A stretch of DNA of 64,000 nucleotides, from contig CP174360.1 in the NCBI GenBank assembly GCA_045401155.1, forward strand, positions 233,403-297,402. Direction: 5' to 3'. The position numbers were made by a program, and so were the translations under genes. The DNA is from Candidatus Minusculum obligatum. GTDB lineage: Bacteria > Patescibacteriota > Minisyncoccia > Phycocordibacterales > Phycocordibacteraceae. The notes under the pieces were generated by a model. The model was given only the letters and a program-made list of their open reading frames with translations, searched no databases and was not told where the DNA came from. The first letter of the stretch is position 1. Every line of letters starts with the position of its first letter. This document shows positions 27,414-60,823 of this stretch, piece after piece.

Positions 27414-27878
27414 ATGAAAAAAGGATTTACACTCATTGAATTGCTTGTGGTGGTTGCCATCATTGGCATGCTTTCATCTGTAGTGCTTTCTTCTTTGAAC
27501 ACTGCTCGTGCAAGTGCTCGTGATGCACGTCGTGCACAAGATGGGAAGCAGGTGGCTGCTGCACTCGAACTTTACTATAGTGCAAATAATGGATTTCCTG
27601 CCAATGGGGGGACCGGTTGTTCTACAAACTATTGTTTATCTCATATAAGCGCAGCACTTACGCCTACGTATATTCCAAACTTACCTACGGATCCTATTTA
27701 TGGAGACTCAGGAACGTATCCATATCGGTATTGTGTGACAGGGAATGCATTTGAGCTCCTTGTGTACGATGAAGGCCTATCGTCTTGGTGTCATATTAGA
27801 CATGGATCAAATGACTCTGGAAGTGGGTGTTGGATGACAAATGGAGTTCCAAATAGTGGAACTGTTTGGTGTGACTAA
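27414..27878 (+). CDS. Type IV pilin-like protein (prepilin-type N-terminal cleavage/methylation domain)
   Basis: 'MKKG|FTLIELLVVVAIIGMLSSVVLSSLNTARA' is a class III signal peptide with a conserved Glu at +5. It is about 150 aa with C-terminal Cys residues. Confidence 0.85.
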   Translation: MKKGFTLIELLVVVAIIGMLSSVVLSSLNTARASARDARRAQDGKQVAAALELYYSANNGFPANGGTGCSTNYCLSHISAALTPTYIPNLPTDPIYGDSGTYPYRYCVTGNAFELLVYDEGLSSWCHIRHGSNDSGSGCWMTNGVPNSGTVWCD

Positions 27879-27899
27879 GGGCATGCTACAATTTTCTTA

Positions 27900-28619
27900 A
27901 TGCTTGTTACTCCAGCAATACTTCCAAAAAGCTTTGCAGAATTAAGTGAAAAGATCACGCAAATACGCCCATTTGTAAAAAATGTGCAGCTTGATGTGTG
28001 TGATGGGAAGTATGTAGACACAATGACGTGGCCGTATACAGAAGCCGGTCCTTCTGTTGAGGAAATGAAAAGAAGAGGTGAGGTGTTGCCCGAGGCAGAC
28101 ACGATTCACTATGGTGTTGATCTTATGGTTTCGAACCCAGATGAGGTGATCGGTGATTTTATTGCTCTCGGTGCTACGCGAGTCATCATTCATTTCAAGA
28201 GCACTAAGGATTTTAAAAAAACGATTGATCGCATCACTCGTGACTTTGGATACGATAAAGAATTTGCACCAGATCTTCTTTCCGTTGGTATGGCGGTGCC
28301 AATTGACTTGCCACTTACAGAATTTGCACCGTACGTGCAGCATGTAGATTTCATTCAGTTTATGGGGATTGTAGATATTGGAAGACAGGGACAGGGATTT
28401 GATCCTCGTGTGGTCGCAAAGATAAAAGATTTCCATAAGCGATATCCTGACGTAACAATTCAAGTAGATGGTGGCATCTCGCTTGAAACGGCACCTGCAC
28501 TGTTGGGGGCAGGTGCAGATAGATTAGCTGTGGGTTCTGCACTATTTAAAACACCAAACATAGGTCATACTATAAAAGAGTTTGAGAAGCTCTCAGAGCA
28601 ATATGGTATTTACGAATAA
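27900..28619 (+). CDS. rpe: Ribulose-phosphate 3-epimerase family protein
   Basis: 'VQLDVCDGKYV', 'DLMVSNP', 'IHFKS' and 'IQVDGGIS' are characteristic RPE TIM-barrel motifs. Confidence 0.88.
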   Translation: MLVTPAILPKSFAELSEKITQIRPFVKNVQLDVCDGKYVDTMTWPYTEAGPSVEEMKRRGEVLPEADTIHYGVDLMVSNPDEVIGDFIALGATRVIIHFKSTKDFKKTIDRITRDFGYDKEFAPDLLSVGMAVPIDLPLTEFAPYVQHVDFIQFMGIVDIGRQGQGFDPRVVAKIKDFHKRYPDVTIQVDGGISLETAPALLGAGADRLAVGSALFKTPNIGHTIKEFEKLSEQYGIYE

Positions 28620-29070
28620 CAAAGGGTTTACACTTATTGAATTGCTTGTGGTGGTTGCCATCATCGGCATGCTTTCTTCCGTTGTTTTAAGTTCTTTAAA
28701 TCAGGCACGAGCAAATTCTCGAGATGCTCGACGTACAGGTGATATACATTCTATACGTACTGCACTTGAGCTTTTTTATAATGCTTATAACAGGTATCCA
28801 TCATCTGCAGATGGTAATTGTGTTTATAATAACAGCTTTGCTTCAGGTGGGTGTTTACAAGTGCTTGTTTCAAACGGTTTTATTCAAGCTTTGCCAGAAG
28901 ATCCTGTCGGAACACAAACGTACTACTACGATAATTGGTGTCGAGAGATCGGTTCAAATAATCAGAATTTTCGTGTATGGGCAAATGGAGAAACAGACAA
29001 CAATGGTCTTGCTGAAAATTGGTGGTATGAGGAAACAATTGGTGAGACAACGTGTTATGACCCGAGTTAA
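28603..29070 (+). CDS. Type IV pilin-like protein (prepilin-type N-terminal domain)
   Basis: 'MVFTNNKG|FTLIELLVVVAIIGMLSSVVLSSLNQARA'. The start at ATG 28603 overlaps the rpe 3' end by 17 nt. Confidence 0.8.
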   Translation: MVFTNNKGFTLIELLVVVAIIGMLSSVVLSSLNQARANSRDARRTGDIHSIRTALELFYNAYNRYPSSADGNCVYNNSFASGGCLQVLVSNGFIQALPEDPVGTQTYYYDNWCREIGSNNQNFRVWANGETDNNGLAENWWYEETIGETTCYDPS

Positions 29071-29174
29071 TCACTCTGAGCACATGCTACAATTTTTCTA
29101 ATGCGTAATAGGAGCATGGGTGCAGATAATAAATTTCTTGTACATAATTTGATGGGTACTCGCTGCTGGTAAAT

Positions 29175-30008
29175 ATGATTTCAGAAAAACAAATACAAAT
29201 TATAAAAGATAGAGCTCAAGATATTCGTGAAAGCATTATTGAGATGCTTGTTGAAGCCAAAAGTGGTCATACTGCAGGGCCACTTGGTATGGCAGATATC
29301 TTTGCTACATTCTATTTTCATATTTTAAAGCATGATCCCAAGAGGCCTGATTGGGAGGAGCGTGATCGTCTTATTCTTTCAAACGGGCACATTGTGCCAG
29401 TTCGCTATGCAACGATGGCGCACGCAGGATATTTCCCAGTAAAGGAGATCATGACGCTTCGTAAATTTGGAAGTCGTCTGCAGGGGCATCCAGAGCCAGA
29501 GCGATTGCCTGGGCTTGAAAGCACCTCAGGACCTCTTGGAAGTGGTCTCTCTCAAGCTTCCGGTATTGCGTATGCAAATAAGATGGATGGGAAGGAGAAT
29601 TATACATACTGCTTCCTTTCAGATGGGGAGCTGCAAGCAGGCAATACATGGGAGGCGGCAATGTTTGCGGGGAACAATAAACTAAATCGTTTGATTTGTG
29701 TTGTAGATCGCAACTTTATTCAAATTAATGGGAATACTCAGGATGTGATGCCGCTTGAGCCACTTGCTGATAAGTTCCGATCGTTTAATTTCCACGTTAT
29801 TGATATAGACGGTCATGATATTGAGGCAATTATTGCTGCGGTTGAAGAGGGGAAAGCTCAAGCGGATAAGCCAACAATGATTTTGGCAAAAACAATTCCA
29901 GGCAAAGGAGTTCCTGAGATTGAGGGAAATTATATTTGGCACGGGAAGCCACCAACTCCTGAGGAAGCAGAGCGATTTCTAGAAGCAATACGCGGATACT
30001 ATGATTAA
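29175..30008 (+). CDS. tkt: Transketolase, N-terminal (TPP-binding) subunit
   Basis: 'GHTAGPLGMADIFATFYFHIL', 'DRLILSNGH' and 'GSRLQGHPE' are present. The gene is split, with the C-terminal subunit encoded immediately downstream (an 8-nt overlap). Confidence 0.9.
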   Translation: MISEKQIQIIKDRAQDIRESIIEMLVEAKSGHTAGPLGMADIFATFYFHILKHDPKRPDWEERDRLILSNGHIVPVRYATMAHAGYFPVKEIMTLRKFGSRLQGHPEPERLPGLESTSGPLGSGLSQASGIAYANKMDGKENYTYCFLSDGELQAGNTWEAAMFAGNNKLNRLICVVDRNFIQINGNTQDVMPLEPLADKFRSFNFHVIDIDGHDIEAIIAAVEEGKAQADKPTMILAKTIPGKGVPEIEGNYIWHGKPPTPEEAERFLEAIRGYYD

Positions 30009-31002
30009 TAAGAATGCACATATACATGAAGATGTTTTTACTCCTGAGAAGTTAGAGCAGGGTTCTACTCGCGATGGGTATGGAAAGGGTGTTGTAGAGG
30101 CTGGAGAGGAGGATGTAAACATATGTGTGCTTTGTGCAGATCTTATGGAAAGCACGCGCTCACATTGGTTTTATGAAAAGTTTCCTGAGCGATACATAGA
30201 GCTTGGGGTGGCTGAGCAAAACTTAGCAGCTCTTGGTGCGGGACTGGCTCTTGGCGGAAAGGTTCCATTTATTGCCTCATATGCTGCATTTTCTCCAGGG
30301 CGAAATAATGAGCAGATACGCACACTTATTTCATTGCAAGGCACAAATGTAAAAGTGTGCGGTATGCATGCGGGGGTTTCTGTAGGGCCAGATGGCGCAA
30401 CACATCAAGCGCTTGAAGATGTTGCGCTTATGCGTACACAGCCAAACATGACAGTTATTGTTCCTGCAGATGTAGAAGAAGCTCGTAAGGCAACTATTGC
30501 TGCAGCAAAGTATAAGGGGCCAGTGTACCTCCGTTTTGGACGAAGTAAGTTTCCTATCTACACTACAAAAGATACGCCGTTTGAAATTGGGAAAGCATAC
30601 CGTGTTTGGGAGAGTGAGAATCCAAAGGTTGGTATTGTCGCAGCAGGAGGACTGCTTCACAATGCGCTTCTTGCTGCAAAGAAATTAGATGAAGCTGGTA
30701 TTGGAAGTATTGTGCTTAATTTACACACCATAAAACCACTTGATGGAAAGGCACTTCTTGCGCTTTCTGAAGAGGTAGGTGCGATTGTTACTGTTGAGGA
30801 GCATCAAGTTGCCGGAGGGATGGGGTCTGCTGTTGTAGAGTACCTCTCTCAAGTTAAACCGATGCCGTTTGAGTTTGTCGGCGTGCGGGATCAGTATGGT
30901 CAGTCAGGTAATCCTGATGAATTAATAGAGCACTATGGTATGGGCGTATCTCATATCGAGCGTGCGGTTCATAAAGCAATTGATCGTGTTAAGGCTATTT
31001 AA
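30001..31002 (+). CDS. tkt: Transketolase, C-terminal (pyrimidine-binding) subunit
   Basis: 'ELGVAEQNLAALGAGLALGGKVPFIASYAAF' and 'GPDGATHQALEDVALMRTQPNMTV' are present. Confidence 0.9.
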   Translation: MINKNAHIHEDVFTPEKLEQGSTRDGYGKGVVEAGEEDVNICVLCADLMESTRSHWFYEKFPERYIELGVAEQNLAALGAGLALGGKVPFIASYAAFSPGRNNEQIRTLISLQGTNVKVCGMHAGVSVGPDGATHQALEDVALMRTQPNMTVIVPADVEEARKATIAAAKYKGPVYLRFGRSKFPIYTTKDTPFEIGKAYRVWESENPKVGIVAAGGLLHNALLAAKKLDEAGIGSIVLNLHTIKPLDGKALLALSEEVGAIVTVEEHQVAGGMGSAVVEYLSQVKPMPFEFVGVRDQYGQSGNPDELIEHYGMGVSHIERAVHKAIDRVKAI

Positions 31003-31145
31003 AAACAAGTGGTTCATTATTATTTTATTCTTTGCGTTTGCAATTTTTGCTATTACAGTAATTGCGCAATCAAGTGGAGACCATGACTTTCTTTATCATG
31101 ACGAAGAAGGGGATATATTTGATGTAATAGATACACTTGAGTAAT

Positions 31146-31172
31146 AAAAAGCCCTCAGTTGAGGGCTTTTTA
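31146..31172. terminator. Bidirectional rho-independent terminator between convergent genes
   Basis: AAAAAGCCCTC-agtt-GAGGGCTTTTT with A/T runs on both sides, lying between the tkt (+) stop and the PfkB kinase (-) stop. Confidence 0.6.
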
Positions 31173-32162
31173 TTATAGTTCTTGTACTTTGTAATCCTCT
31201 GGAGCGTTTTCGAGGTGATCGAGTAGCTTGCCTCGTGTAAGGAGTCCTTTTTGTGCTCCCATGTATTGCACTACAGACATTGAGTTAATTGGCCCCCAAA
31301 GAAGCGCGTGTTCAAGTGGTTCACCAAGTGCTAGCGCTGCGGTTACGGTTGAAGAGAAAGCGTCTCCCGCGCCGGTTCTATCTACAGGTTTTTTGGGATC
31401 TGGGTACATTGGCGCAAAGAGAAACCTGTTTCCATCATAGCTATATGCGCCATTTGGGCCGTCGGTGATGATTGGCACCTTTGGTCCTTTCTTCTTCATC
31501 ATCTTAAGAAGTTCTTTGATGTCAAGTTCGTCAGTTTTTAGAATTCGTTGCGCCTCTTGTTTGTTACAGAAGAATAGATATGAGGCTTGGTATAGATCTT
31601 TTAGTTCTTCATACCCCTGGTTTATCTGGAATGTGCCCGGTTGGAATGCAAGACGGATATCAGGGTGCCTTTTTACATAGTCTGCAATTTCATGTTGAAA
31701 AGGAAGAGAGTTCTCAGCAAGGCTTGAAAGGTACATGTACTTAGGAGGTGCCATTTGAGGAAGTTTGTAATCATATTCGTAGTGTTTTACGAGAATAGTT
31801 CGCTCTGCGTTATAGCTAAGTACGTAGTGGTAGTTACTTCCCATACCTGCCTGGCGTGTAAGGTATGTAAGATCAATACCTTCTTTTGTAAACGCATCTT
31901 CAATCTCATCTCCAAACTTATCGTCTCCAATCCAGGCCATAATGCCACTATTAAGTCCTAGGCGATGTGCAGATACGGTTGCATTTGCAGCGTTTCCTAC
32001 GGCAGGCACTACCGTCACGCCATCAAAAGGGATTTTATCTCCCCAGTTCATTGAAATCTTGCAATTATCTTTATCTATATCGCAGGTAATTTCAGGGTTG
32101 TGTAATTGGATAAAGGCATCAATTACGGGGTCTCCAATTCCTAAGAAGTCTAGTTTTTTCAT
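31173..32162 (-). CDS. Carbohydrate/nucleoside kinase, PfkB (ribokinase) family
   Basis: The C-terminal 'DRTGAGDAFSSTVTAALALG' is the PfkB signature 2. The N-terminal 'MKKLDFLGIGDPVIDAF' gives the likely start at 32162; an alternative upstream ATG is at 32195. Confidence 0.8.
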   Translation of the reverse strand: MKKLDFLGIGDPVIDAFIQLHNPEITCDIDKDNCKISMNWGDKIPFDGVTVVPAVGNAANATVSAHRLGLNSGIMAWIGDDKFGDEIEDAFTKEGIDLTYLTRQAGMGSNYHYVLSYNAERTILVKHYEYDYKLPQMAPPKYMYLSSLAENSLPFQHEIADYVKRHPDIRLAFQPGTFQINQGYEELKDLYQASYLFFCNKQEAQRILKTDELDIKELLKMMKKKGPKVPIITDGPNGAYSYDGNRFLFAPMYPDPKKPVDRTGAGDAFSSTVTAALALGEPLEHALLWGPINSMSVVQYMGAQKGLLTRGKLLDHLENAPEDYKVQEL

Positions 32163-32208
32163 ATGTCCGTATTGTAACAGGAGAGTGGTGTACACTTACG
32201 CATATATG

Positions 32209-32772: not shown

Positions 32773-32808
32773 AATTGTACGGTTAGAGTGCGTGCTAGAG
32801 TAGAGGTA

Positions 32809-33831: not shown

Positions 33832-33833
33832 GT

Positions 33834-34802: not shown

Positions 34803-35030
34803 ATGAACAACGTTCAATTTGATGATCAGCAACAGTTTCGTACTGTGCAAAAGAAAAAGGGCTTGACCCAAATGGTTATTAATATGGGGCTCGCAAAGGA
34901 TGAGAAGGGTGCGCAGGTAGTGCTTCTTATTGTGGGGGTGGTTGCGCTTGCAGTCATGTTCTTCTTTATGTTTTCAGGAGGAGGCGCACCTGCTCCAGCT
35001 GAGCTTCCAGATCCAAATGTAGGTCTATAG
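34803..35030 (+). CDS. Small single-TM protein, pilin-associated family (paralog of 60129-60368)
   Basis: 'MNNVQFDDQQQFRTVQKKKGLTQMVINMGLAKDEKGAQVVLLIVGVVALAVMFFFMF' then a short Gly/Pro tail. It ends 4 nt before a pilin gene. The N-terminal 45 aa are about 80% identical to ORF 60129. Confidence 0.55.
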   Translation: MNNVQFDDQQQFRTVQKKKGLTQMVINMGLAKDEKGAQVVLLIVGVVALAVMFFFMFSGGGAPAPAELPDPNVGL

Positions 35031-35033: not shown

Positions 35034-35534
35034 GTGAGAAAAGGATTTACACTTATTGAACTTCTTGTAGTAGTAGCCATTATTGGCATGCTTTCTTCAG
35101 TGGTACTGTCGTCACTTAATACTGCACGCGCAAATACCCGTGACGCAAGACGCTATGCTGATCTACGCCAAATAGCAAACGCCCTTGAGTTGTATTATCA
35201 AGCAAATGGTCGCTATCCGATACAGACAACGTGGAGAGGGACAACTCCCGGATGTTATGGGACAGGAAGTGATCCAAATACGTCTATTCCAGGTCTTGTA
35301 CCAACATATATACCAGTCATACCACAAGATCCTCGGTGGGTGCCAAACTCGTATTGCTATCTGTATGTTTCGTATGCTCCTTACCAAGACTATAAACTGC
35401 TTGCGTACGGCACAGTTGAGGGTGGTCAGGTACCGGTAAGTGACCCTAAGTCACGGTATGCGGGGTGCTCATCTGGTGGCGCCGCCGAAGCATCCTACGG
35501 GATTGCGTCAAGCCCAACATCAGCCTGTTGGTAG
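35034..35534 (+). CDS. Type IV pilin-like protein (prepilin-type N-terminal domain)
   Basis: GTG start. 'MRKG|FTLIELLVVVAIIGMLSSVVLSSLNTARA'. Confidence 0.85.
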   Translation: MRKGFTLIELLVVVAIIGMLSSVVLSSLNTARANTRDARRYADLRQIANALELYYQANGRYPIQTTWRGTTPGCYGTGSDPNTSIPGLVPTYIPVIPQDPRWVPNSYCYLYVSYAPYQDYKLLAYGTVEGGQVPVSDPKSRYAGCSSGGAAEASYGIASSPTSACW

Positions 35535-48398: not shown

Positions 48399-49160
48399 TT
48401 AGTTGGTTACGGTGATTTTTACAAATGCGCCGTTATTATTCTCATCTGATTCAGTGACACCGTTATTCTGGTCTACTGCAACTGAGATTTGTAGATCTTC
48501 TCCAACCTTAGATCGGTCAAATCCGATTACGTACTCAATCTTTTCTCCAGGGAGAAGGTTTTGTACATGCTGCTCTTGTCCTTCAAAGATATACGTAGTC
48601 TCTGTAGGCATCACAACATTGAATCGCCAGTTAGTTCCAGTCTCCTTAGTTCCATTGTTTGCTACCTGGAACTTTACTGCAATTCGATCATTTTTTACAA
48701 GATCTGATGTTGGAATAAAGTTTTCTGCTTGTACTCCTCCTACAAGTTTTCCTGTAGCAAGGATTGTTGGCACAAGGTCTGCCAATCCATTTGGATCTGA
48801 CACTGGAGATGGGTTCTGAGTAATTACCTCAGTATCCTCATTTCCTGGTGTAGGAGTAACTGGTGTTGTAGGAGCCTCTGGCTCCTCAGTTTCTTCCTCT
48901 TTATCTTCAAGTACGATAGGGAAGTTTGTATTTGGTGTCTCTGTGTCTACTACAATGACATTCTCATCTTGTACAAAGATAGATGTCACACCAATTACAG
49001 TCGCTGATAGCCCTTCTACTGCTCCATTAACAATAGTTGGTACAAATCGTGCTGCATTTCCCGCAAGTACTACGGCCAAAGTAAGTAGGGTAATGAACCC
49101 AACTACTGCAAGACCATTTACTGCTGCTTGTTTTGTTTCCATATTGCTTATAACGCTCAC
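48399..49160 (-). CDS. Membrane-anchored protein with C-terminal CARDB-like domain
   Basis: An N-terminal signal-anchor 'LAVVGFITLLTLAVVLAG' is followed by a Pro/Thr/Glu-rich linker. The C-terminal 'RIAVKFQVANNGTKETGTNWRF...ESDENNNGAFVKITV' has the CARDB hallmark (E.NE.NN). Confidence 0.6.
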   Translation of the reverse strand: MSVISNMETKQAAVNGLAVVGFITLLTLAVVLAGNAARFVPTIVNGAVEGLSATVIGVTSIFVQDENVIVVDTETPNTNFPIVLEDKEEETEEPEAPTTPVTPTPGNEDTEVITQNPSPVSDPNGLADLVPTILATGKLVGGVQAENFIPTSDLVKNDRIAVKFQVANNGTKETGTNWRFNVVMPTETTYIFEGQEQHVQNLLPGEKIEYVIGFDRSKVGEDLQISVAVDQNNGVTESDENNNGAFVKITVTN

Positions 49161-49219
49161 AAATAATGTGGCAGATTTTTACCATACACAAAGTATAATG
49201 TCAAGGAAGGGGGATTTGC

Positions 49220-49948
49220 GTGCTCTTGACATTGGGCATGTTTTCGTGTATTAATATGCCGGTAGATATGAGCGACATGAGCACTAAAGCAAACGGTTTC
49301 GCGTACGTGCTAGGTACGATTTTCAAGAACAAATGGAAGTTCTTGGCTTTTTCAGTACTAGCCTTCATCTTTTTTGTATGGATTCTTGGGAAGCTAGATC
49401 TTCTTCCAGAACCTGATACATCAAAGAGTTTAAGTACGATTACGATTGCGTCTGCGGCTGCAGCATTTCCTGTAGTTACAGATGTTGAGGAAGTTGTTGT
49501 TCCGGAAAAGCCACTTCGGGTGTCTATTCCGTCGCTTGATATTGATGTGCGTGTTAACAACCCGTACAAGAGTGATATTAAGACACTTGATGCTGCACTG
49601 TATGACGGTGTGGTGCGGTACCCAGGATCTGGAATGCTTGGAGAGAATGGAAACGTTGTTATCTTCGGGCACAGCTCATACCTTCCGGTAGTGAAGAATG
49701 AATACTTTAAAGCATTTAATGGTGTTCAGAAGCTTTCTACAGGAGATGTGATTGAGGTATACGGACTTGATACCGTGTATCGATATGAGGTTGCGTCTGT
49801 ATATGAGGCGGATGCCACAGATACACGCATTGCTCTTAGTAAGGATAGTAAGAAGCTAACGCTTTCTACATGTAATTCATTTGGTGATTTAAATGACCGA
49901 TATGTAGTAGAGGCGTACTTCGTGGGAAGCACACAGATTTCTTCTTAG
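49220..49948 (+). CDS. Sortase family transpeptidase
   Basis: N-terminal TM 'FLAFSVLAFIFFVWIL', the catalytic His context 'VVIFGHSSY', the active-site 'LTLSTCNSF' (TLxTC) and the downstream Arg 'RYVVEAY' are all present. The exact start among several in-frame ATGs is uncertain. Confidence 0.8.
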   Translation: MLLTLGMFSCINMPVDMSDMSTKANGFAYVLGTIFKNKWKFLAFSVLAFIFFVWILGKLDLLPEPDTSKSLSTITIASAAAAFPVVTDVEEVVVPEKPLRVSIPSLDIDVRVNNPYKSDIKTLDAALYDGVVRYPGSGMLGENGNVVIFGHSSYLPVVKNEYFKAFNGVQKLSTGDVIEVYGLDTVYRYEVASVYEADATDTRIALSKDSKKLTLSTCNSFGDLNDRYVVEAYFVGSTQISS

Positions 49949-50037
49949 AGATCTGTGTGCTCTCCGTGAGGGAGAGTGGAAAGAACATTACAATTGTCGC
50001 CGAGAATATCGGCGACGCAATAGAGAGGAGAATCGAG

Positions 50038-51183
50038 ATGTTCAAATATCTCGCACTCGCCGCGTCGCTGGTCTTTGGACTGGCGACGCCCGCAATTGCT
50101 CAAGTCGGCATGCCTATGTCGTATGAGCTCATGTCTCGTCCAGATGATGGATACTCCCAAGATGATCTCTTTGAGATCCGGGAGCGCCTTATCGTTCAGA
50201 TCGAAGCTTCGCTTCGTCTGGATCCGCTCGGAGACGCCTATATCGTCGGAACTCCGTGTTCGACGCCGAATGACTTTTTTCGTGCGTTTCGGGAATACCA
50301 TCCTGAACACGCTCCGGAAAATGTCGAAGATCTTCCGAGGTTCTTGCGTACGCTTCAACTGATGCGTGCACAAGAGCTCGGAATTCAGGGTGACACGTAT
50401 GCGTCTACGCGCATGATGTGTCACTCTGCAGATTCTTCTTCTTCGGAAGATGAGTTGGATCTCGAAGGTGTCGAGCGAGCCGTGCGTCTGAATGAGTTCG
50501 TGTGGGTTCACCCCAATGGCTCAGTCATGATGCTCGGGGATTGTTCGAACATTGTTCGGGCTCCGGTTACCTCCCAAGAAGCTTCGCCTGTTCCGCCGGC
50601 TCTTGAGGAGCCGTGGTACCAGCAGTGCCTGTTTGTTCCCGTCGGAACACGTCGGGGTGCGTCCTATCAATGGGCACATTTCCTACGCGAACCGATCCCC
50701 GGATCAAACTCGCAGACTTGTCGGGTGCTTTGTCAGGGCGTCTTGCGCAATGACGGAACGCCCCTGGTGGTTGAGGACACATGCATTCGTGCACCGCGTC
50801 CTTGTCAGGATTGCGAATGGGGCGAACAGCCTATTCCTTCGAGGTTTGAGGTTCAGGACAGCTCCCAGTGGGATGCTGAATGGGACCTCACCATGATCGG
50901 CATTAGTGTCGATGATGCACGTCTTGGTGGATACTTCGCAATCTGTGGCTATCAGGATGATCGTGAGCGTACCGGGGTTCCAATTTTTGAACCCAACGAG
51001 CTCGCCGATGCTGCGGATGCCGGAGTCTGGAATCAGGGGATTGTTGTTCCGTACTGGAATCGCGGTCCTACTCGTCAGATGCAGGCAGTGTTCCGTGTTG
51101 GCGACCTGGTGTACTTCCAGGATCGTCGCGGAAACGTCGAGGTTCGGGAAGATCCTTTGGATTTTTCTCGAGGTAATGAGTAG
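50038..51183 (+). CDS. Secreted Cys-rich hypothetical protein in a locally GC-rich segment (probable horizontal acquisition)
   Basis: The start is taken at ATG 50038, where a classic signal peptide 'MFKYLALAASLVFGLATPAIAQ' begins. Codon usage (GCG/CGC/GTC-rich) and GC content differ from the flanks. No recognisable family. Confidence 0.5.
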   Translation: MFKYLALAASLVFGLATPAIAQVGMPMSYELMSRPDDGYSQDDLFEIRERLIVQIEASLRLDPLGDAYIVGTPCSTPNDFFRAFREYHPEHAPENVEDLPRFLRTLQLMRAQELGIQGDTYASTRMMCHSADSSSSEDELDLEGVERAVRLNEFVWVHPNGSVMMLGDCSNIVRAPVTSQEASPVPPALEEPWYQQCLFVPVGTRRGASYQWAHFLREPIPGSNSQTCRVLCQGVLRNDGTPLVVEDTCIRAPRPCQDCEWGEQPIPSRFEVQDSSQWDAEWDLTMIGISVDDARLGGYFAICGYQDDRERTGVPIFEPNELADAADAGVWNQGIVVPYWNRGPTRQMQAVFRVGDLVYFQDRRGNVEVREDPLDFSRGNE

Positions 51184-51232
51184 CATTCGTGTCCGGGCAG
51201 GAAACTGTCCGGACACATCACCTCTCTTTTTT

Positions 51233-54073
51233 ATGATTATGATTTCAAAACCAACAAATATTCTAAGTTATGCAAAAGCACATCCGATTAAATCGGGGTT
51301 ACTTGCTGTGTTTACATTTTTTACGATTCTAGGAACTGGTTTTGGAACACTTTATGTTGTTGCGCCCGACACAGCAGAGGCTGTGCTAGTTGGTAACCCT
51401 TGTTGTACAACTGGTTGGGATCCTTGGGGGCCAGGAGGATGGAATCCTGAACCTGTTATTGATCCAGGATTTCCTGGTGGAGGCGGAGGTGGGGGAACTG
51501 TTCCTGCGCCAGTGTGTTCTCTTACTGTAAATCCAACTTCAATTGTTGAGGGTGATTCGGCAACACTTACGTGGGTAACACGATACGCAGATCTTCTTGC
51601 AATTGATAATAGTATTGGGAACCTTTCTGAGATTACAGGATCAGTAAGTGTTTCTCCTACAGAAACGACAACATATACGCTTGTGGCTCAAAACAGTTAT
51701 ACAGGGCGAACTGTTGAGTGTAATGCAACAGTTACGGTTACTGAGCCACCTGTAGTGCCAGTGTGTACGCTAAACGTAAATCCATCAGCTATTGAGCGAG
51801 GGGGCAGCGCAACCATTTCTTGGACAACTACAAATGGATCAACATTCCGTATTGGAGGTATCGGTGATCTAACTCCAGTATCTGGAGGATCAACCGAGGT
51901 TACTCCAGTTGCTGCAGGTACCTATACATATGTTGGAGTTGTAACGAGTGCAGATGGAAGTACTGCAACGTGTGAAGACACACTTACTGTTACTCCTCCA
52001 ATTGTTGTAAATCCACCAGTGTGTACGCTTGATATTGTTCAAGACACAATTACGATTGGTGAAAAAATCAATATTGATTGGGAGACACGTCATGCGAATA
52101 CTTTTAGTATTGATAATGGAGTGGGAGACATAAATCTTTGGACAGATCCAATTGCGAGTGGATCAGTTTCAACTACTCCAGGTTCAGAAGGGACCATTAC
52201 GTATACAGGAACTGCAACAAATACAGATGGAGATACGGTTGAGTGTTCAGACACGGTAACCGTGCTTCCAATTGGGATTGATACGCCAGCATGTACGCTA
52301 ACAGCAGATAAGTTCTCACTACTTCCTGGTGAGACCACAACTATTCGATGGACGCTTATAAACGTTACAGAAGCAACACTACAGCATCTAGACGCGGTGC
52401 AGATCATCGATCCTACAGATGGATCTCAGTCTGCAGTTGCGGGTACGTATACGCTTCGAGCTGGGAATGGTCTAGCGAGTGTTGAGTGTGAGGTAACCAT
52501 TGTACGGGTTACAGTAGATGCGCCAGCATGTACGCTAACTGCAGATAAACTCTCACTACTCCCAGGAGAAACAACTACCATTAATTGGACTATTGAGAAT
52601 GCCACAGAGGCGACACTACAGCATCTAGACGCGGTACAGATTATTGATCCTACAGATGGATCCCAGTCTGCAGTTGCAGGTACGTACACACTTTCAGTTG
52701 GAAACGGAACGTTGTCTGAAACATGTGAAGTTACAATTGTGCGTATTACTCCAGGAACACTCAGTTGTGATCTAAATATTGATCGAGCAATTATTCGTTC
52801 TGGTGAGACTGCTGAAATTAGCTGGACCACAAACGAGGCGGTAAGTTTTGAGATTAATGGAGAAGACAAACCCCTTAATGGTTCTGAGACTATTCAACCG
52901 CTTGGTGTACAGATCCACACATACACGGGAATTGCGACTGATGCAGATGGAAATACAGTTGAGTGTGAAGACACTGTTCAAGTAACTGGAGGTTCAGGAG
53001 GTGGAGGTCTTTCGTGTGCGATGAGTTTTGATCGATCTGCAATTCGAGCAGGGCAATCAGCAACACTTCGTTGGGAGGTGCGCAATGCCGATGTTAATAC
53101 TATTGAGATCAATCAAGGTATTGGAAATGTAGCACCGCTTGCTTCAGAGGAGGTTCGTCGAAGCGATACTGGTACACATGAGTACGTTCTTACCGCTCGA
53201 GGAGATGGAGATCAGGTTACGTGTCGAGCGACACTAACTGTTTCAGGTGGATCAGGATGTTCTGGAAACTGTGGAGGTGGATCTACACCACAGATCAGTA
53301 TTGATTTCCTTAAGACTCCTGGAGAGCAGGCGCTTGCCTTCGTGACTCTTTCACAGATTCCATATACTGGACTTGAGCTAGGTCCTGTTGGAGCCGTAAT
53401 TTACTGGGTATTCCTAATTGTATGGAGTGGTGCTGTTGCATATCTTGTACTGTTTAAGGCTCTTCCATTTGCACGTCGAAAGCTTGTGATGGTTGGAGAA
53501 GACGTAATGGAGGTGCTTGATGCAAGTAAAGAGGATACAATGTACGCATCTATGCCAGAGGAAAAAGAGCACGTGGAATTTCTACCAAACCAGAAAGGGG
53601 ATGATGCGCTATCTGTAGAAGATATCGTACGTGGCCTCTCACGTATGCATAAGGAAAAGGCTCCAGAGGAGAATGTGCTTGATGAGATAGATGTTGCTGC
53701 TGAGATGGAGCTTCCTCCAGTTGAGAAGGTTGCACCAGTTACTAGTGGGGAAGATATGCGTCTTCTAAATGCAATTATCTCAGGTGATAAGGATGCAAGC
53801 TTTGGAATTCTTCGACGAGTTATCCGAAATGGTGCTCGAGCAGAGGATCTATTTGAAAAAGTCCTTGTGCATCTTGATAGCGCATACCGAGCACGTGTTG
53901 ATGGTGCGTATGTAGATGAAGATGTGCGTCGAGCAACCGCATCTCTCGACACAGCACTTCTTGAGGAGGTTATTACCGCACTTGCTCCGGCAATTGATAC
54001 AACCTACTCACATGCACAAACTGGTGCAAAACTTGCACTTACTCGAGTGCATCAGGTGATTGCGCGTGGTTAA
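51233..54073 (+). CDS. Large surface protein: N-terminal TM, ~8 Cys-bracketed Ig-like repeats, LPXTG-like IPYTG + TM + RRK segment, and a ~230-aa C-terminal cytoplasmic domain
   Basis: The start is taken at ATG 51233 (MIMISKP...), downstream of the GC-rich gene. The repeats look like 'P.C.L...P..I..G...T..W.T......I....G.........V.P..TT.YT..A.N..G..V.C...VTV'. After the repeats comes 'GGSGCSGNCGGG', then 'LSQIPYTGLELGPVGAVIYWVFLIVWSGAVAYLVLFKALPFARRK', then a soluble E/D-rich domain. Confidence 0.65.
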   Translation: MIMISKPTNILSYAKAHPIKSGLLAVFTFFTILGTGFGTLYVVAPDTAEAVLVGNPCCTTGWDPWGPGGWNPEPVIDPGFPGGGGGGGTVPAPVCSLTVNPTSIVEGDSATLTWVTRYADLLAIDNSIGNLSEITGSVSVSPTETTTYTLVAQNSYTGRTVECNATVTVTEPPVVPVCTLNVNPSAIERGGSATISWTTTNGSTFRIGGIGDLTPVSGGSTEVTPVAAGTYTYVGVVTSADGSTATCEDTLTVTPPIVVNPPVCTLDIVQDTITIGEKINIDWETRHANTFSIDNGVGDINLWTDPIASGSVSTTPGSEGTITYTGTATNTDGDTVECSDTVTVLPIGIDTPACTLTADKFSLLPGETTTIRWTLINVTEATLQHLDAVQIIDPTDGSQSAVAGTYTLRAGNGLASVECEVTIVRVTVDAPACTLTADKLSLLPGETTTINWTIENATEATLQHLDAVQIIDPTDGSQSAVAGTYTLSVGNGTLSETCEVTIVRITPGTLSCDLNIDRAIIRSGETAEISWTTNEAVSFEINGEDKPLNGSETIQPLGVQIHTYTGIATDADGNTVECEDTVQVTGGSGGGGLSCAMSFDRSAIRAGQSATLRWEVRNADVNTIEINQGIGNVAPLASEEVRRSDTGTHEYVLTARGDGDQVTCRATLTVSGGSGCSGNCGGGSTPQISIDFLKTPGEQALAFVTLSQIPYTGLELGPVGAVIYWVFLIVWSGAVAYLVLFKALPFARRKLVMVGEDVMEVLDASKEDTMYASMPEEKEHVEFLPNQKGDDALSVEDIVRGLSRMHKEKAPEENVLDEIDVAAEMELPPVEKVAPVTSGEDMRLLNAIISGDKDASFGILRRVIRNGARAEDLFEKVLVHLDSAYRARVDGAYVDEDVRRATASLDTALLEEVITALAPAIDTTYSHAQTGAKLALTRVHQVIARG
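52283..52762 (+). repeat. Tandem 240-bp (80-aa) near-identical duplication encoding two Ig-like repeat units
   Basis: The copies 52283-52522 and 52523-52762 align base-for-base at about 85% ('cgccagcatgtacgctaac(a/t)gcagataa...cagcatctagacgcggt(g/a)cagat(c/t)at(c/t)gatcctacagatggatc(t/c)cagtctgcagttgc'). The antisense ORFs 52090-52407 and 52426-52869 translate to near-identical peptides, which corroborates the duplication. Confidence 0.75.
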
Positions 54074-54095
54074 TCACTATATTTAACCGATGTAC

Positions 54096-54126
54096 AAAAA
54101 GAGCGTCCATATGGACGCTCTTTTTG
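54096..54126. terminator. Bidirectional terminator hairpin between convergent genes
   Basis: AAAGAGCGTCCAT/ATGGACGCTCTTT, a perfect palindrome, then TTTTG. It lies between the stop at 54073 (+) and the thrS stop at 54127 (-). Confidence 0.55.
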
Positions 54127-55899: not shown

Positions 55900-55902
55900 C
55901 GA

Positions 55903-55928
55903 AATGCGGCCTCTGGAGGCCGCATTTC
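55903..55928 (-). terminator. Hairpin (AAATGCGGCCTC-tgga-GGCCGCATTT), putative terminator for the upstream minus-strand small gene / 5' element of thrS
   Basis: A perfect 10-bp GC-rich stem with A/T flanks lies in the 183-bp gap between the gene 56083-56370 (-) and the thrS (-) start. A second GC hairpin sits at 56041-56067. Confidence 0.35.
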
Positions 55929-56082
55929 ATCTTTGAACTACAACCACCAGGGGGCGTCTACACGGTAGTAGTTGTTGTAGTTGTGTTATTCATAATCAAT
56001 ATCTAAAAGGTAGCAGATGGGAGAGGGAAGTCAATAATAAAGGGCGTCGCGGTATGTTGCGGCGCCCCAAAACAGAGGTGCG

Positions 56083-56370
56083 TTAAGCGATTGTTGCCTC
56101 GATTGCCTCGAGGACAATTTCTCGAAATGATTTACTGCCTTTACTCGAGAGTAAAAGCAGGTTTCCACCAAGACTCTCAACGTGTTCTACGAACGTGTCC
56201 CAGTAGAGTTCTGGACCTTTGCAGATCATGTTGATTGCCTTAATGTGGTCCCCGTTTTTTGCCTCCTTAAGGATCGGGGAGAAAAATTGTTGTTTAGCTC
56301 GCCATTCTTCCGAAAATGATTTTAGGAATATGGTGACGGGCTCGAAGGTGATTGAAAACTTTTCAAGCAC
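56083..56370 (-). CDS. Hypothetical protein (95 aa)
   Basis: An ORF with no recognisable motifs, in the same orientation as dnaE and thrS and followed by GC-rich hairpins. Confidence 0.35.
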   Translation of the reverse strand: MLEKFSITFEPVTIFLKSFSEEWRAKQQFFSPILKEAKNGDHIKAINMICKGPELYWDTFVEHVESLGGNLLLLSSKGSKSFREIVLEAIEATIA

Positions 56371-56420
56371 TGTTCCTCTCCCAGTTGCCTGTTTGTAAAG
56401 TAAAACATTTTATAGAAAAG

Positions 56421-59400
56421 TCAAAGAGACTGGAGCTTATCAATGATGATACTTGTTTCTCCATTTCGTCCCGAGAGACTTCCTTTAAGCACAACGCAAG
56501 AAGAAGGGTAGATTATTTCTGCAGATTGTTCGTATACCTTAGGGAATACTACGCACTCAATAGAGCCAGATTTGTCTTGGATTTTTACAAAGGCCATTCG
56601 ATCTCCTTTCTTTGTTAAAAATGGCTTTGCTTCTTCAATCATTCCTGCAATCACGATCGGTAACCCGCTCTTTGGTCCATGTAGGATGTGGTGAATATTT
56701 CTTTTTACCGTTTTTAGTTTCTCTTCAAATTCATCCAGTGGGTGTCCAGATACATAAATTCCAAGCAATTCTTTTTCCCATACAAGTTTTTCTTTAAGTG
56801 GCGCATCTTCTGCAGGAGCAAGATCAAGTCTGTGCGTTGGCATAAGTTCTCCAAAGAGAGAGTCTTGGGATCCTTTCTCATGGCCCGCTTCTTTATGGAA
56901 GGTGATGAGTTGGTCAATATTCTTTAGAAACTCTCCTCGAGTTCCAAGGGAATCAAGCGCTCCAGATTTGATAAGTGACTCCAGTCCTTTACGGTTCAGT
57001 GCACTACTTGTTACGCGAGAGAGGAAGTCTGCAATATTTGTAAACTTTCCGTTTTCTTCACGTTCCTTGATGATTGCTTCTGCCACTCCTGCTCCAAAGT
57101 TTTTAATAGACACAAGTCCAAAGCGGATCTTTGTATTGTTCTCCACGATGGTGAAATCACTATTACTTTCATTGATGTCAGGAGGAAGTACGGGGATTCC
57201 CATGCGCTCACATTCTGCAATAAGTATTGAAATCTTTTCAGTGTCTCCCGCATCAGCAGTTAGAAGGGCTGCCATATACGGCACAGGGTAATTAGCCTTC
57301 ATGTAGGCTGTTTGGTACGCCACACGTCCATAACTTGCGGCGTGTGCTTTGTTGAATCCGTATCCGGCAAATGGGGCAATAAGGTCCCAGATTTGATTTG
57401 CTTTTGCGAGGTCTGTGCCATTATCGACGCATCCTTGAAGGAATTTCTCTTTCTGCTTTTCCATCTCCTCTGGAATTTTCTTACCCATAGCTTTTCGGAG
57501 CTTGTCAGCTTCAAGCCATGAGTATCCTGCGATATTAATCGCAATGAGGAGCACGTCATCCTGATAGGTGATCACACCGTGAGATGCTTCGAGAATATCT
57601 TTCATTTTCTCATGCATATAACTCACTTTCTTTGGATTGTGTTTTCGCTCAATATATTCAGGAATAGAGTCCATCGGTCCAGGACGATACAGCGCCACCA
57701 TCGCGTTGATGTCATTAATGTTTGTGGGCTTTAGTTCCTTGAGGAATCTAGTCATTCCAGAACCATTAAGCTGAAAGAGTCCTTCTGTTTGTCCTGAGGC
57801 AAGGAGCTTAAAGGTGATTGGGTCATCTACCGGAACATTTTCAATATCAATTTCATCTCCTGTTTCTTCTTTAGCGCGCGCCACGGCATCAGCCAAAATC
57901 GCAAGGTTTTTAATACCAAGGAAGTCAAACTTAATAAGGCCCGCATCTTCTACGGCATGCATGTCGTACTGCGTGATAAGTTTTCCTCCCTTCGGGTCGT
58001 GCTGGATTGGTGTCCATTCATGAAGTGGAGAAGGGGAGATCACCACCCCGGCGGCGTGCACTCCAGTTTGCCTAGCGCATCCTTCAACTTTCTTAGCAAG
58101 ATCAATGATTTCCTTTGCATCTTCATCCCCTTTATAGAGTTTTTTAAGATCAGGCTCAATTTGAAGTGCTCGTTCGATTGTCATGGGGAATCCCTGGCTT
58201 CCCATAGGAATAAGTTTTGCAATCTTATCTCCAACCATGTAGGCGTGTCCGAGTGCTCGAGCAGTATCTCTGACCGCGGCACGGGCTGCCATGGTTCCAA
58301 ATGTACCAATCTGCGCTACGTGGTCTTCACCATACTTTTCTCGAGCATAGTTAATAACCTCATCACGACGGTTATCAGCAAAGTCCATATCGATATCAGG
58401 AGCAGAAGGTCGCTCAGGGTTTAGGAATCGTTCAAAAGGTAGTCGGTATTCAAGTGGATCCACATTTGTAATACCAAGCACATAGGTTGTAAGAGACCCA
58501 GCAACAGATCCTCGAATGGTTGTAAGGATTTTATTTTCTCTAGCAAAACGAAGGAGGTCCGCCACAATAAGGAAATATGGAGCAAATTTCTTTTGCTCAA
58601 TAATATCTAGTTCGTAGTTTAGACGATCTACGACCTCTTTAGTTTCTTCAAGGCCCCGATTTTTAATACCCTCAAAGGCAAGTCGCCTAAGCTCATCTTG
58701 GTACTCTAGGCCGCTTGGTACCTCAATGTCAGGGAACACCCATTTCCCAAGATCAAATGAAAGATCTATTTTATCTGCAATCTTTTTAGAGTTTTCAATT
58801 GCTTCTGGAAGATCCTTAAATGCTTTTTCAATATCTTTTGGCTTTTTAAATGAAAGGTCTAGGTTTCCAGCAGCTTTTGCATGTCGTCCTTCGCGGATAC
58901 GCATCAGCACTTCTCGCGCTTCTTTATCTTCAGGTTTGATGTAGTACACCTCTTGGTTCGCAACAAGGGGTACATTTTCTTTTTCTGAAAGAGTTACGAT
59001 CTTTTCATTTAACGCTTTACGATCTTTATTTTCTGGGTGATCAGTGATTTCAAGATATAGATCGTCTTTGTATATATCTTTATAGGTAGCAAGGAGTGCT
59101 GAGGCACCCTCGATGTCATTTTGAAGGAGTAGGTTAGAAGTTTCGCTTTGGTACGCTGGAAGAATCGCAATTACTCCTTCGCTGTGGTTGGTAAGAAGTT
59201 CTAGATCTACACGTGGCCGCTCCCAAAAGCCAGTAAGGTATGAGTCTGAGACAATTGCAAGAAGGTTTTTATATCCTTTTTCATTCTTTGCAAGAAGGAT
59301 AATTCGAGCCAGATCATGCTCTCTGTCATGCGGGTCAGTTCTATTACCTGGAGCAACGTATGTGTGTACACCAAGAATGGGTTTAATTTCTTGTTTCTCA

Positions 59401-59564
59401 CACTCTTTATAAAAGGCGATAGCGCCGTGTAAGTTTCCGGCATCAGTAAGTGCGATTGCGGGCAATTCGTGCTTTTTTGCCTCTGCTACAAGCTCTTTTA
59501 TCTTTGGGAGTGCCCGAAGGAAGCTGTAGTGGCTGTGAGTGTTTATTTGCACATAATTGCTCAT
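56421..59564 (-). CDS. dnaE: DNA polymerase III alpha subunit
   Basis: 'MSNYVQINTHSHYSFL' is the PHP domain start. 'GSVAGSLTTYVLGITNVDPL', 'PDIDMDF' and 'GLFQLNGSGM' mark the polymerase core, and a C-terminal OB region is present. The start is taken at ATG 59564. Confidence 0.93.
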   Translation of the reverse strand: MSNYVQINTHSHYSFLRALPKIKELVAEAKKHELPAIALTDAGNLHGAIAFYKECEKQEIKPILGVHTYVAPGNRTDPHDREHDLARIILLAKNEKGYKNLLAIVSDSYLTGFWERPRVDLELLTNHSEGVIAILPAYQSETSNLLLQNDIEGASALLATYKDIYKDDLYLEITDHPENKDRKALNEKIVTLSEKENVPLVANQEVYYIKPEDKEAREVLMRIREGRHAKAAGNLDLSFKKPKDIEKAFKDLPEAIENSKKIADKIDLSFDLGKWVFPDIEVPSGLEYQDELRRLAFEGIKNRGLEETKEVVDRLNYELDIIEQKKFAPYFLIVADLLRFARENKILTTIRGSVAGSLTTYVLGITNVDPLEYRLPFERFLNPERPSAPDIDMDFADNRRDEVINYAREKYGEDHVAQIGTFGTMAARAAVRDTARALGHAYMVGDKIAKLIPMGSQGFPMTIERALQIEPDLKKLYKGDEDAKEIIDLAKKVEGCARQTGVHAAGVVISPSPLHEWTPIQHDPKGGKLITQYDMHAVEDAGLIKFDFLGIKNLAILADAVARAKEETGDEIDIENVPVDDPITFKLLASGQTEGLFQLNGSGMTRFLKELKPTNINDINAMVALYRPGPMDSIPEYIERKHNPKKVSYMHEKMKDILEASHGVITYQDDVLLIAINIAGYSWLEADKLRKAMGKKIPEEMEKQKEKFLQGCVDNGTDLAKANQIWDLIAPFAGYGFNKAHAASYGRVAYQTAYMKANYPVPYMAALLTADAGDTEKISILIAECERMGIPVLPPDINESNSDFTIVENNTKIRFGLVSIKNFGAGVAEAIIKEREENGKFTNIADFLSRVTSSALNRKGLESLIKSGALDSLGTRGEFLKNIDQLITFHKEAGHEKGSQDSLFGELMPTHRLDLAPAEDAPLKEKLVWEKELLGIYVSGHPLDEFEEKLKTVKRNIHHILHGPKSGLPIVIAGMIEEAKPFLTKKGDRMAFVKIQDKSGSIECVVFPKVYEQSAEIIYPSSCVVLKGSLSGRNGETSIIIDKLQSL

Positions 59565-59607
59565 ATTGGAGCTAGTATACCAAATCAAGATGGTATAGTT
59601 ATTTTAT

Positions 59608-60117
59608 ATGAAACGAGGATTTACCCTGATTGAGCTTCTTGTAGTGGTTGCCATTATTGGAATGCTTTCATCTGTGGTGTTGTCATCTCTAAACCAGGCT
59701 CGTTCTGGTGCTCGAGATGCACGCCGCGCGCAAGATATTAAGCAGTTCCAGGCTGCGCTAGAGCTTTACTATAATGACAATAATTCTTATCCAGTATCTG
59801 GATGGGCACACAGTAGCGGAGGTACAAACTGGACAAATCTACAAACGGCTTTGTCTTCATACATCACATCTCTTCCAACAGATCCGATTAATACAGCAGG
59901 TGGTGCAGGGTATAATAACGATCAATATGTGTATTCATACTATGCATCAGGGTATGGAGGATCGGGACAGTGGTACATGATTATCTGGGAGCTTGAGAAC
60001 TCAAATCAGGCATTTGAGGGTACCGATGGAGTAACTGCATGTAATGGACAAGTATTCCATTATGGTAGTGGAACAGATGGTCGTGTTAGCACCGGTGGAA
60101 CCTGTGCAGGTCAGTAA
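59608..60117 (+). CDS. Type IV pilin-like protein (prepilin-type N-terminal domain)
   Basis: 'MKRG|FTLIELLVVVAIIGMLSSVVLSSLNQARSGARDARR'. Confidence 0.85.
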   Translation: MKRGFTLIELLVVVAIIGMLSSVVLSSLNQARSGARDARRAQDIKQFQAALELYYNDNNSYPVSGWAHSSGGTNWTNLQTALSSYITSLPTDPINTAGGAGYNNDQYVYSYYASGYGGSGQWYMIIWELENSNQAFEGTDGVTACNGQVFHYGSGTDGRVSTGGTCAGQ

Positions 60118-60128
60118 TGTAAATAATT

Positions 60129-60368
60129 ATGGATAACAACGTTCAATTTCAAGATCAACAAAATCAATACACAGTCTCTAAGAAAAAGGGGCTGACACAA
60201 ATGGTGATTAATATGGGGCTTGCAAAAGATGCAAAAGGGGCACAAATGGTGCTTCTCGTGGTTGCGGTTGTTGCAGTTCTTATCGCTGGATTCTTTATGT
60301 TCACTGGAAATTCTGTCGGAGACGGGCAGCCAAATGTGCTTCCTGAAGGACAGTTTATTCCAGAATAA
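60129..60368 (+). CDS. Small single-TM protein, pilin-associated family (paralog of 34803-35030)
   Basis: 'MDNNVQFQDQQNQYTVSKKKGLTQMVINMGLAKDAKGAQMVLLVVAVVAVLIAGFFMF'. Its stop overlaps the start of the next pilin gene. Confidence 0.55.
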   Translation: MDNNVQFQDQQNQYTVSKKKGLTQMVINMGLAKDAKGAQMVLLVVAVVAVLIAGFFMFTGNSVGDGQPNVLPEGQFIPE

Positions 60369-60823
60369 TGAAGAAAGGGTTTACATTGATTGAGCTTCTT
60401 GTAGTGGTTGCCATTATCGGCATGCTGTCTTCAGTGGTATTAAGTTCTCTTAATACAGCGCGAGCTGGTGCTCGAGATGCAAGGCGTCAGCAAGACATAA
60501 AGCAGATTCAGACGGCTCTTGAGCTTTACTACAATGTAAACAATGCATACCCGCTTGAGGTTGGGTGTGACACAAGTAAAGGGAGCGGTTCAAGTGGCTG
60601 CAATAGTTCAGGAACGGATTGGGATGAAAGTAGCTATATTCATAGCGGTCTTGTGCCGGGCTTCATTGCTGATCTTCCTGTTGACCCCATAAACGACAGC
60701 ACCTATTACTACAACTATGAGCCGGGAAATCCCGCAGGGCAAAACTATTGCATCGGTGCAACTCTTGAGGGGGGAGGACGTTTCCGTGTATATGATGGAA
60801 CTCCATCGTATACTAACTGTTAA
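60368..60823 (+). CDS. Type IV pilin-like protein (prepilin-type N-terminal domain)
   Basis: 'MKKG|FTLIELLVVVAIIGMLSSVVLSSLNTARAGARDARR'. Confidence 0.85.
   Translation: MKKGFTLIELLVVVAIIGMLSSVVLSSLNTARAGARDARRQQDIKQIQTALELYYNVNNAYPLEVGCDTSKGSGSSGCNSSGTDWDESSYIHSGLVPGFIADLPVDPINDSTYYYNYEPGNPAGQNYCIGATLEGGGRFRVYDGTPSYTNC

Follow-up and report, generated by a model that had tools for sequence, protein, structure and literature searches.

Five type IV pilin paralogs in housekeeping operons of a Patescibacteria genome: a shared N-terminus and signs of recombination at the gene 5' ends

We analyzed five pilin genes located on a 64-kb stretch of the genome of Candidatus Minusculum obligatum (contig CP174360.1, positions 233,403 to 297,402; the whole stretch is hereafter called the window), which start at window positions 27414, 28603, 35034, 59608, and 60368. 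Our best explanation, which we consider likely when taken as a whole, is that these are ordinary, complete paralogs that encode subunits of a type IV pilus (type IV filament) in an ultrasmall bacterium of the candidate phyla radiation (CPR)/Patescibacteria, that their common N-terminus is constrained mainly at the protein level, and that their 5' ends have recombined on an evolutionary timescale. Multiple pilin genes with a common N-terminus are already known and expected in CPR bacteria, and the finding as it was first stated is routine. Beyond this, at least one rearrangement and several gene conversion tracts map to the conserved 5' segment, which we regard as a comparative result of modest interest.

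Identity of the five pilin genes

A six-frame scan of the window for the pattern G[FY][TS]L[ILV]E returned exactly five G-F-T-L-I-E sites. They correspond to five pilin open reading frames (ORFs), all on the + strand, at the positions given in the original prediction, an earlier reading of this DNA. In each of them a leader and a glycine are followed by FTLIE. The leader reads MKK-G in pilin 1 (27414-27878, 154 amino acids (aa)), MVFTNNK-G in pilin 2 (28603-29070, 155 aa from the ATG), MRK-G in pilin 3 (35034-35534, 166 aa, GTG start), MKR-G in pilin 4 (59608-60117, 169 aa), and MKK-G in pilin 5 (60368-60823, 151 aa). Pilin 3 lies in the slot between the genes for 2-hydroxyacid dehydrogenase (2HADH) and L25; pilins 4 and 5 lie between those for DnaE and RNase HII, and pilin 5 is the conserved resident of this slot. 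The prepilin signal, consisting of a short basic leader, Gly-1, Phe+1, and Glu+5, was found in all five proteins. Every one of them scores above the cutoff of the Pfam family N_methyl (PF07963; 31.2-35.1 bits, with 31.7 for pilin 1 and 35.1 for pilin 2, cutoff 21.2) and of the NCBIfam model TIGR02532 (34.4-35.1 bits, with 35.1 for pilin 1, cutoff 16.3). The leaders and these family matches support the earlier assignment of intact class III signal peptides and of a repertoire of pilus subunits.

Each gene encodes a hydrophobic alpha-1 helix and a small beta-sheet head that resembles GspG and carries C-terminal cysteines. The 60368 protein was modeled with AlphaFold2 from an alignment of 87 homologs. 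The model reached a predicted local distance difference test score of 92.8; residues 7-58 form a helix, and a small beta sheet comes after it. With its long N-terminal helix against an antiparallel beta sheet, the model has the lollipop fold, and its top Foldseek matches were PulG, EpsG, and the gonococcal pilin. An NCBI protein from 'Patescibacteria group bacterium UBA2103' matches the 60368 protein with 100% identity, and more than 7500 homologs were found.

The best family-level similarity of the five pilins is to the GspG-type domain (PF08334/TIGR01710) and runs along most of their length. They might thus be read as pseudopilins of a type II secretion system (T2SS), or of a ComG-type competence pseudopilus serving DNA uptake only, instead of subunits of an extended type IV pilus. 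The NCBI annotation, 'type II secretion system protein' or prepilin-type, would agree with such a reading, as would the best NCBIfam similarity, which is to the GspG model TIGR01710 (44-58 bits in all five), a weak similarity to the ComGE and ComGC models, and the presence of PulG and EpsG among the top structural matches. The pilins also have the alpha-1C motif and the conserved LP.DP region in common with GspG/PulG/EpsG. However, the TIGR01710 scores remain far below the equivalog cutoff of 88.85 in all five proteins, which by this measure are not GspG equivalogs. The ComG models stay below their cutoffs too, and the T2SSG family PF08334 exceeds its cutoff of 21 only for the 28603 protein (25.1 bits). 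Unlike GspG, the pilins have no gsp genes nearby: within the window, no gsp operon with a secretin was found next to them, and their neighbors encode RpiB, Rpe, transketolase, 2-hydroxyacid dehydrogenase, L25, DnaE, and RNase HII. Patescibacteria are not known to possess an outer membrane or a secretin, both of which a T2SS needs. The pilins from which cultivated Patescibacteria assemble extended type IV pili are, moreover, comparable, and some of them resemble T2SS pseudopilins (PMC11623550). We therefore consider a pseudopilin function improbable and retain the assignment as type IV pilus subunits.

Type IV pili are nearly universal in Patescibacteria, and strain TM7x has about 12 pilins across 4 loci; the pilins of Saccharibacteria have only N-terminal features in common, while their C-terminal domains diversify (PMC11623550). 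The window pilins resemble those of Nanosynbacter lyticus TM7x (PilA1/PilA2 and minor pilins, type IVa; PMC11623550) in that a tiny genome carries many pilin genes over several loci, and in their conserved prepilin signal, hydrophobic N-terminal helix, divergent C-terminal heads, and lollipop fold, with some T2SS-pseudopilin-like members. However, TM7x belongs to the Saccharibacteria, whereas the relatives of the window genome are labelled Wolfebacteria or UBA2103. Furthermore, the window pilins do not lie beside assembly genes but stand singly or in pairs in pentose-phosphate/glycolysis and replication/RNA-processing operons, and all five carry an identical 26-residue N-terminus. By analogy with Saccharibacteria, their likely function is host attachment, twitching motility and/or DNA uptake. 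We infer that the five proteins assemble into a pilus, in which one paralog is predicted to be the major subunit and the remaining ones minor or alternative subunits. PilE1 and PilE2 of the monoderm Streptococcus sanguinis are highly similar over their whole length, whereas the heads of the window pilins are only about 30% identical. The two S. sanguinis pilins form a heteropolymeric type IV pilus (PDB 8pfb) and, unlike the window pilins, are encoded by adjacent genes in a pil locus.

Conservation of the 5' segment at the protein and DNA levels

Of the 27 residues that begin with Gly-1, 26 are the same in all five pilins (GFTLIELLVVVAIIGMLSSVVLSSLN). In a repeat search of the window, the five gene starts form one direct-repeat family (D1) of about 185 nucleotides (nt). 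Pairwise DNA identity over the 81 nt from Gly-1 averages 78% (range 73-81%) and decreases to 76% over 108 nt, so that the original estimate of about 80% was right. The description of these segments as near-identical dispersed repeats was overstated, as identity over the 81 nt amounts to 87% at first, 96% at second, and just 50% at third codon positions, and the longest in-register exact runs measure 11-15 nt in eight of the ten pilin pairs. We compared the invariant columns with a null model, in which random synonymous codons for the same peptide were drawn from the window's own codon usage. The observed nucleotide identity was 79.5%, compared to 73.7 ± 1.9% under the model. As random synonymous codons alone give an identity this high, nearly all of the 5' DNA similarity is forced by the identity of the proteins.

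Orthologs and paralogs from nine other genomes have retained this N-terminus. Across the 5' segments, third-position identity was 0.54 for paralogs within a genome, 0.51 for orthologs between genomes, and 0.46 for non-orthologs between genomes, and thus lies between 0.46 and 0.54 whatever the relationship. The invariant 26-residue N-terminus is held by selection mainly at the protein level, not at the DNA level, and the 5' DNA segments of the window are old, with synonymous sites close to saturation. Conservation confined to the protein, with fully diverged DNA, had been named as the outcome that would speak against the original prediction, and it is largely what we observed. The constraint itself would stem from cleavage by a shared prepilin peptidase, extraction from the membrane by a shared platform, and packing into a shared helical filament core.

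Position 23 is serine in all five window pilins and alanine in most relatives. The five serine codons (AGT, TCA, AGT, TCT, and TCG) span both codon families, which indicates convergence on Ser-23 and not DNA copying. Concerted evolution within the window as the source of the genome-specific residues 23 and 30 was rejected on the same grounds. It is plausible in the UBA2103/UBA3533 relatives, in which codons and whole tracts are identical.

The two pilin pairs with longer exact runs are physical neighbors. Pilins 1 and 2 have 29 nt in common (27435-27463 and 28636-28664, + strand), and pilins 4 and 5 have 31 nt in common (59627-59657 and 60387-60417, + strand), in each case within the 5' segments. 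In simulations with random synonymous codons, the probability of a longest run of at least 31 nt was 0.004, and that of a second longest run of at least 29 nt was 0.00025 (0.025%).

The 3' two-thirds of the genes had been described as unrelated, which is not the case at the protein level. From residue 46 onward, the pilin bodies match one another by tblastn with E values of 1e-4 to 1e-8 and 25-46% identity, and their alignment reveals common motifs (YP, I..(L/I)P.DP, and Y.Y; overall YP...(Y/F)I..LP.DP...Y.Y). The 3' parts are homologous at the protein level. At the DNA level, the repeat search of the window gave no repeat common to the pilin 3' ends, similarity being restricted to the first ~185 nt of family D1.

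Several pilin genes with an identical N-terminal coding segment and divergent heads, along with gene conversion of pilin 5' tracts in relatives (see below), might also be taken as a sign of programmed antigenic or phase variation. Gene conversion via the 5' homology would then frequently overwrite one expressed pilin gene with sequence from the other copies, as in the Neisseria pilE/pilS system, which likewise combines conserved 5' with variable 3' pilin parts and converts between copies. However, each of the five window pilin genes is full-length and has its own start codon and leader, and tblastn and blastn searches of the window with the five bodies returned only these complete genes and no truncated, partial or silent cassettes. 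A G-quadruplex (G4) motif (G3+N1-7 x4) is absent from both strands of the 64-kb window, although a G4 is required for pilE conversion (PMC4023411), and the repeat search of the window detected no 3' Sma/Cla-like repeat. The silent copies of Neisseria supply variable 3' sequence, whereas the window pilins are alike at the 5' end only, and the conversion tracts in the relatives cover this conserved end without importing variable 3' sequence. Furthermore, exact homology is limited to 11-31 nt with synonymous sites close to saturation, pilin orthologs at 60-78% identity remain recognizable across genomes, and the events fall on an evolutionary timescale and not on one of generations. Programmed variation is already largely refuted by these data, and we consider it very improbable. 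As the 5' DNA is old and nearly saturated at synonymous sites, the genes are instead best described as stable, separately translated paralogs within housekeeping operons and not as switching cassettes. The variation by recombination that was originally proposed accordingly fails for this genome as a system of the pilE/pilS type, the window having no silent copies, G4, or 3' repeat, and persists on the evolutionary scale in the turnover of slots, the junctions of the 59608 gene, and the tracts in relatives.

Pilin turnover and recombination among related genomes

We compared the window with loci (numbered between L001 and L018) from about nine related, metagenome-derived genomes. Among them is L007 (DCYT01000002.1), the GTDB representative named UBA2103, whose housekeeping proteins are only about 80-86% identical to those of the window; although NCBI lists the window proteins under the name UBA2103 too, the two thus stem from different but related organisms or assemblies. 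A second gene family takes part in the variation described below. It is represented in the window by two small ORFs encoding single-pass membrane proteins, one directly upstream of pilin 3 (34803-35030, + strand, 75 aa) and one between pilins 4 and 5 (60129-60368, + strand, 79 aa).

Housekeeping gene order is kept in the relatives at 70-92% aa identity, whereas pilin occupancy varies at six or more slots. The slot between RpiB and Rpe contains a pilin in the window only and is empty in L006, L007, L008, and L011; the same four loci lack a pilin between Rpe and the transketolase N gene, where the window and L014 have one. Conversely, L006/L011 and L007 carry a pilin between the transketolase C gene and PfkB, a slot that is empty in the window, L008, and L013, and L007 and L014 carry one between L25 and SLT, a slot that is empty in the window, L008, L011, and L013. 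The 2HADH/L25 slot holds a small ORF with a 35034-type pilin in the window, a small ORF with a 59608-type pilin in L007, L008, and L013, both units in tandem in L011, and two other units in L014. Between DnaE and RNase HII, a single 60368-type pilin is present in L001, L003, L015, L016, and L018, and the window has 59608, the small ORF, and 60368. In L017, a more distant relative, this slot contains four tandem pilins of 165, 173, 165, and 152 aa (1446-3459), from which it follows that it can expand into an array.

Identical body types were found in different slots. The closest relative type of the pilin 1 body, L014_8192, is located in the L25/SLT slot. The pilin 3 ortholog of L011 occupies the same 2HADH/L25 slot as in the window (72% aa identity), and the pilin 4 body is 64-76% identical to L007_13657, L011_10016, L013_6255, and L008_16033, all of which lie in that slot. 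L011 and L007 differ by one whole unit of small ORF and pilin; the genes flanking it are 92-97% identical at the nucleotide level, but the 59608-type pilin only 79.5%. Among the nine relatives, the pilin genes are thus the unstable element within otherwise collinear housekeeping operons.

The 59608 gene combines features of two slots. Of the 48 nt upstream of it, which include the leader MKR, 36-44 agree with the upstream regions in the DnaE slot of L001, L003, L015, L016, and L018, but just 23-31 with those of the orthologs of its own body, which lie in the other slot. The gene is a hybrid, whose upstream region and leader are those typical of the DnaE/RNase HII slot and whose body is of the 2HADH/L25 type. 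The next gene, the small ORF at 60129-60368, is orthologous to 'small2', which in the relatives lies ahead of the 59608-type pilin. Since upstream region and leader are those of the resident slot and the small ORF is the one that precedes this pilin type elsewhere, the inserted block comprises the 59608 body and the small ORF, with both junctions inside pilin 5' segments. At its right end, the small ORF abuts the resident pilin 60368. The pilin gene resident in the DnaE/RNase HII slot received the block, and we propose that this happened within the 5' segment, either through a crossover or through a circular intermediate that integrated there. The 31-nt run of 59608 and 60368 may be the footprint of the crossover. 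Our claim for this block covers the positions of its junctions, not the full pathway.

Two of the relatives show gene conversion of recent date between neighboring pilins. In the tandem units of L011, the pilin 5' tract is 100% identical over 104 nt, and a second tract of ~180 nt crosses the small-ORF 5' end, with diverged sequence between the two. In L007, the 5' segments of neighboring pilins are 94% identical and include an exact run of 47 nt, and repeated small-ORF and pilin 5' tracts mark the limits of the one unit that L007 has lost.

Differential loss, or ordinary duplication and transposition, might account for the differing pilin positions on its own, without any role of the 5' segment in rearrangement. 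Many slots do differ by plain presence or absence, and eight of the ten window pairs have at most 15 nt of exact sequence in common. Such an account leaves aside, however, that both breakpoints of the 59608 block fall within pilin 5' segments, that the conversion tracts of L011 and L007 begin and end at the conserved segment, and that repeated small-ORF and pilin 5' tracts delimit the unit deletion in L007. We consider it rather unlikely, and regard occasional recombination at the pilin 5' ends, as read from these junctions and tracts, as real on an evolutionary timescale in this clade.

Several points weigh against our explanation. The recombination history draws on a sample of about nine metagenome-derived genomes, and many of the presence/absence differences could go back to a pilin-rich ancestor whose genes were lost differentially. 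The small excess of DNA identity over the codon-random level could reflect common ancestry or local codon preference and not gene conversion, and the leaders are too short to serve as strong markers. A single-step excision and integration of a circle was rejected, because the order small ORF-35034-small ORF-59608 of L011 does not give the window arrangement in one step. Finally, a Pfam scan of ~45 window ORFs found only housekeeping and envelope genes, and neither PilB/PilC/PilD-type domains (motor, platform, and peptidase) nor PilM/N/O/T, in agreement with the earlier remark that genes for a pilus assembly ATPase or platform are missing from the window.

In mechanistic terms, the conserved 5' segment and, beside some pilins, the small membrane-protein ORF appear to act as homology patches, through which whole pilin bodies could be inserted, deleted or swapped between fixed intergenic slots, leaving related strains with differing pilin sets. 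A more far-reaching version of this model, which we advance tentatively as a possibility, holds that pilin bodies are exchangeable cassettes among fixed intergenic slots in essential housekeeping operons. Homologous recombination would proceed through the invariant 78-nt 5' segment, with the small membrane-protein gene as a second homology arm and the resident promoter and leader driving whichever body has landed. It would produce strain-specific repertoires, and perhaps host-attachment specificities, without a dedicated recombinase or silent cassettes. Our literature search on CPR, pilin, and gene conversion found no paper. The pili of ultrasmall episymbionts are thought to mediate host contact, and recombination at the 5' segment, if general, would provide minimal genomes with a simple route to strain-level variation of host attachment.

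The small membrane proteins might belong to the same system. The two window ORFs are paralogs with 79% nucleotide identity over 95 nt (repeat family D9) and 68% aa identity, and neither has a Pfam or NCBIfam match. The family is characterized by the motif VQF...GL..LVIK.GLAKDEK.AQ.VLL followed by a transmembrane helix, and a profile search identified 611 related sequence clusters, all of 60-100 aa. The protein encoded at 60129-60368 is 73-77% identical to the small ORFs of L007 and L011 and has the same C-terminus (GDGQPNVLPEGQFIPE). An ORF of the 34803 type is kept upstream of pilins in L007, L008, L011, L013, and L014; small ORFs of the relatives are located at 13396-13632 in L007, 8969-9202 and 9755-9994 in L011, 6001-6237 in L013, and 6001-6219 and 6711-6947 in L014. 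Comparison of L011 with L007 (95% identity at the aa, but 87% at the nt level) indicates purifying selection. These proteins may be pilus-associated factors and, if the arrangement is general, the family of 611 clusters as a whole would look pilus-associated.

Genomic surroundings of the pilin genes

The first three pilins are part of the gene order GAPDH - RpiB - pilin - Rpe - pilin - transketolase N - transketolase C ... aldolase - 2-hydroxyacid dehydrogenase - small ORF - pilin - L25. The other two follow DnaE, which is encoded on the opposite strand, in the order pilin - small ORF - pilin - RNase HII. Gaps between adjacent genes measure 1, 21, -17, 6, 3, 19, 11, -1, and -1 nt. Pilin 1 starts 2 nt after the RpiB stop codon and ends 21 nt before Rpe, the first 17 nt of pilin 2 lie within the 3' end of Rpe, and pilin 5 has 1 nt in common with each of its neighbors, the small ORF and RNase HII. 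From gene positions, this near-zero spacing (26945-29175 and 60117-60823) implies co-transcription with the housekeeping genes and perhaps translational coupling. Around the pilins, promoter-like sites were no commoner than in shuffled sequence, and no convincing terminator was found to flank them, which fits co-transcription with the neighbors but is not informative.

The divergent intergenic region between DnaE and the pilin is just 19-43 nt long (59589-59607 in the window, 5051-5093 in L001, 242-284 in L018). Within it, a conserved TATAGT box lies 9-14 nt ahead of the pilin ATG, a position suggesting that the mRNA leader is very short or missing altogether. In the first of the two gene clusters, L007 differs from L011 and the window in that it lacks the glutamine amidotransferase gene located between PfkB and aldolase.

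Further repeats and surface-related genes were observed elsewhere in the window. In an ORF of 3430 aa (15657-25949, + strand), a 49-nt unit that encodes GNVGIGTTTP-like repeats is dispersed in 14 copies; Pfam recognizes only HTH_17 at the N-terminus and a bacterial surface Ig-like domain at the C-terminus, and the ORF probably encodes a giant surface or adhesin-like protein. A Lys/Ala-rich coding repeat with a periodicity of 30 nt (AKKAAPKRK-type units) is located at 8964-9182, between an O-antigen-ligase-like gene and SecA. Finally, a cluster at 48399-54073 comprises genes for a CARDB-domain protein and a sortase and two large ORFs of 408 and 1055 aa without a Pfam match, the longer of which carries an internal 216-nt tandem duplication (52255-52470 and 52492-52707) with 78% identity between the two copies.

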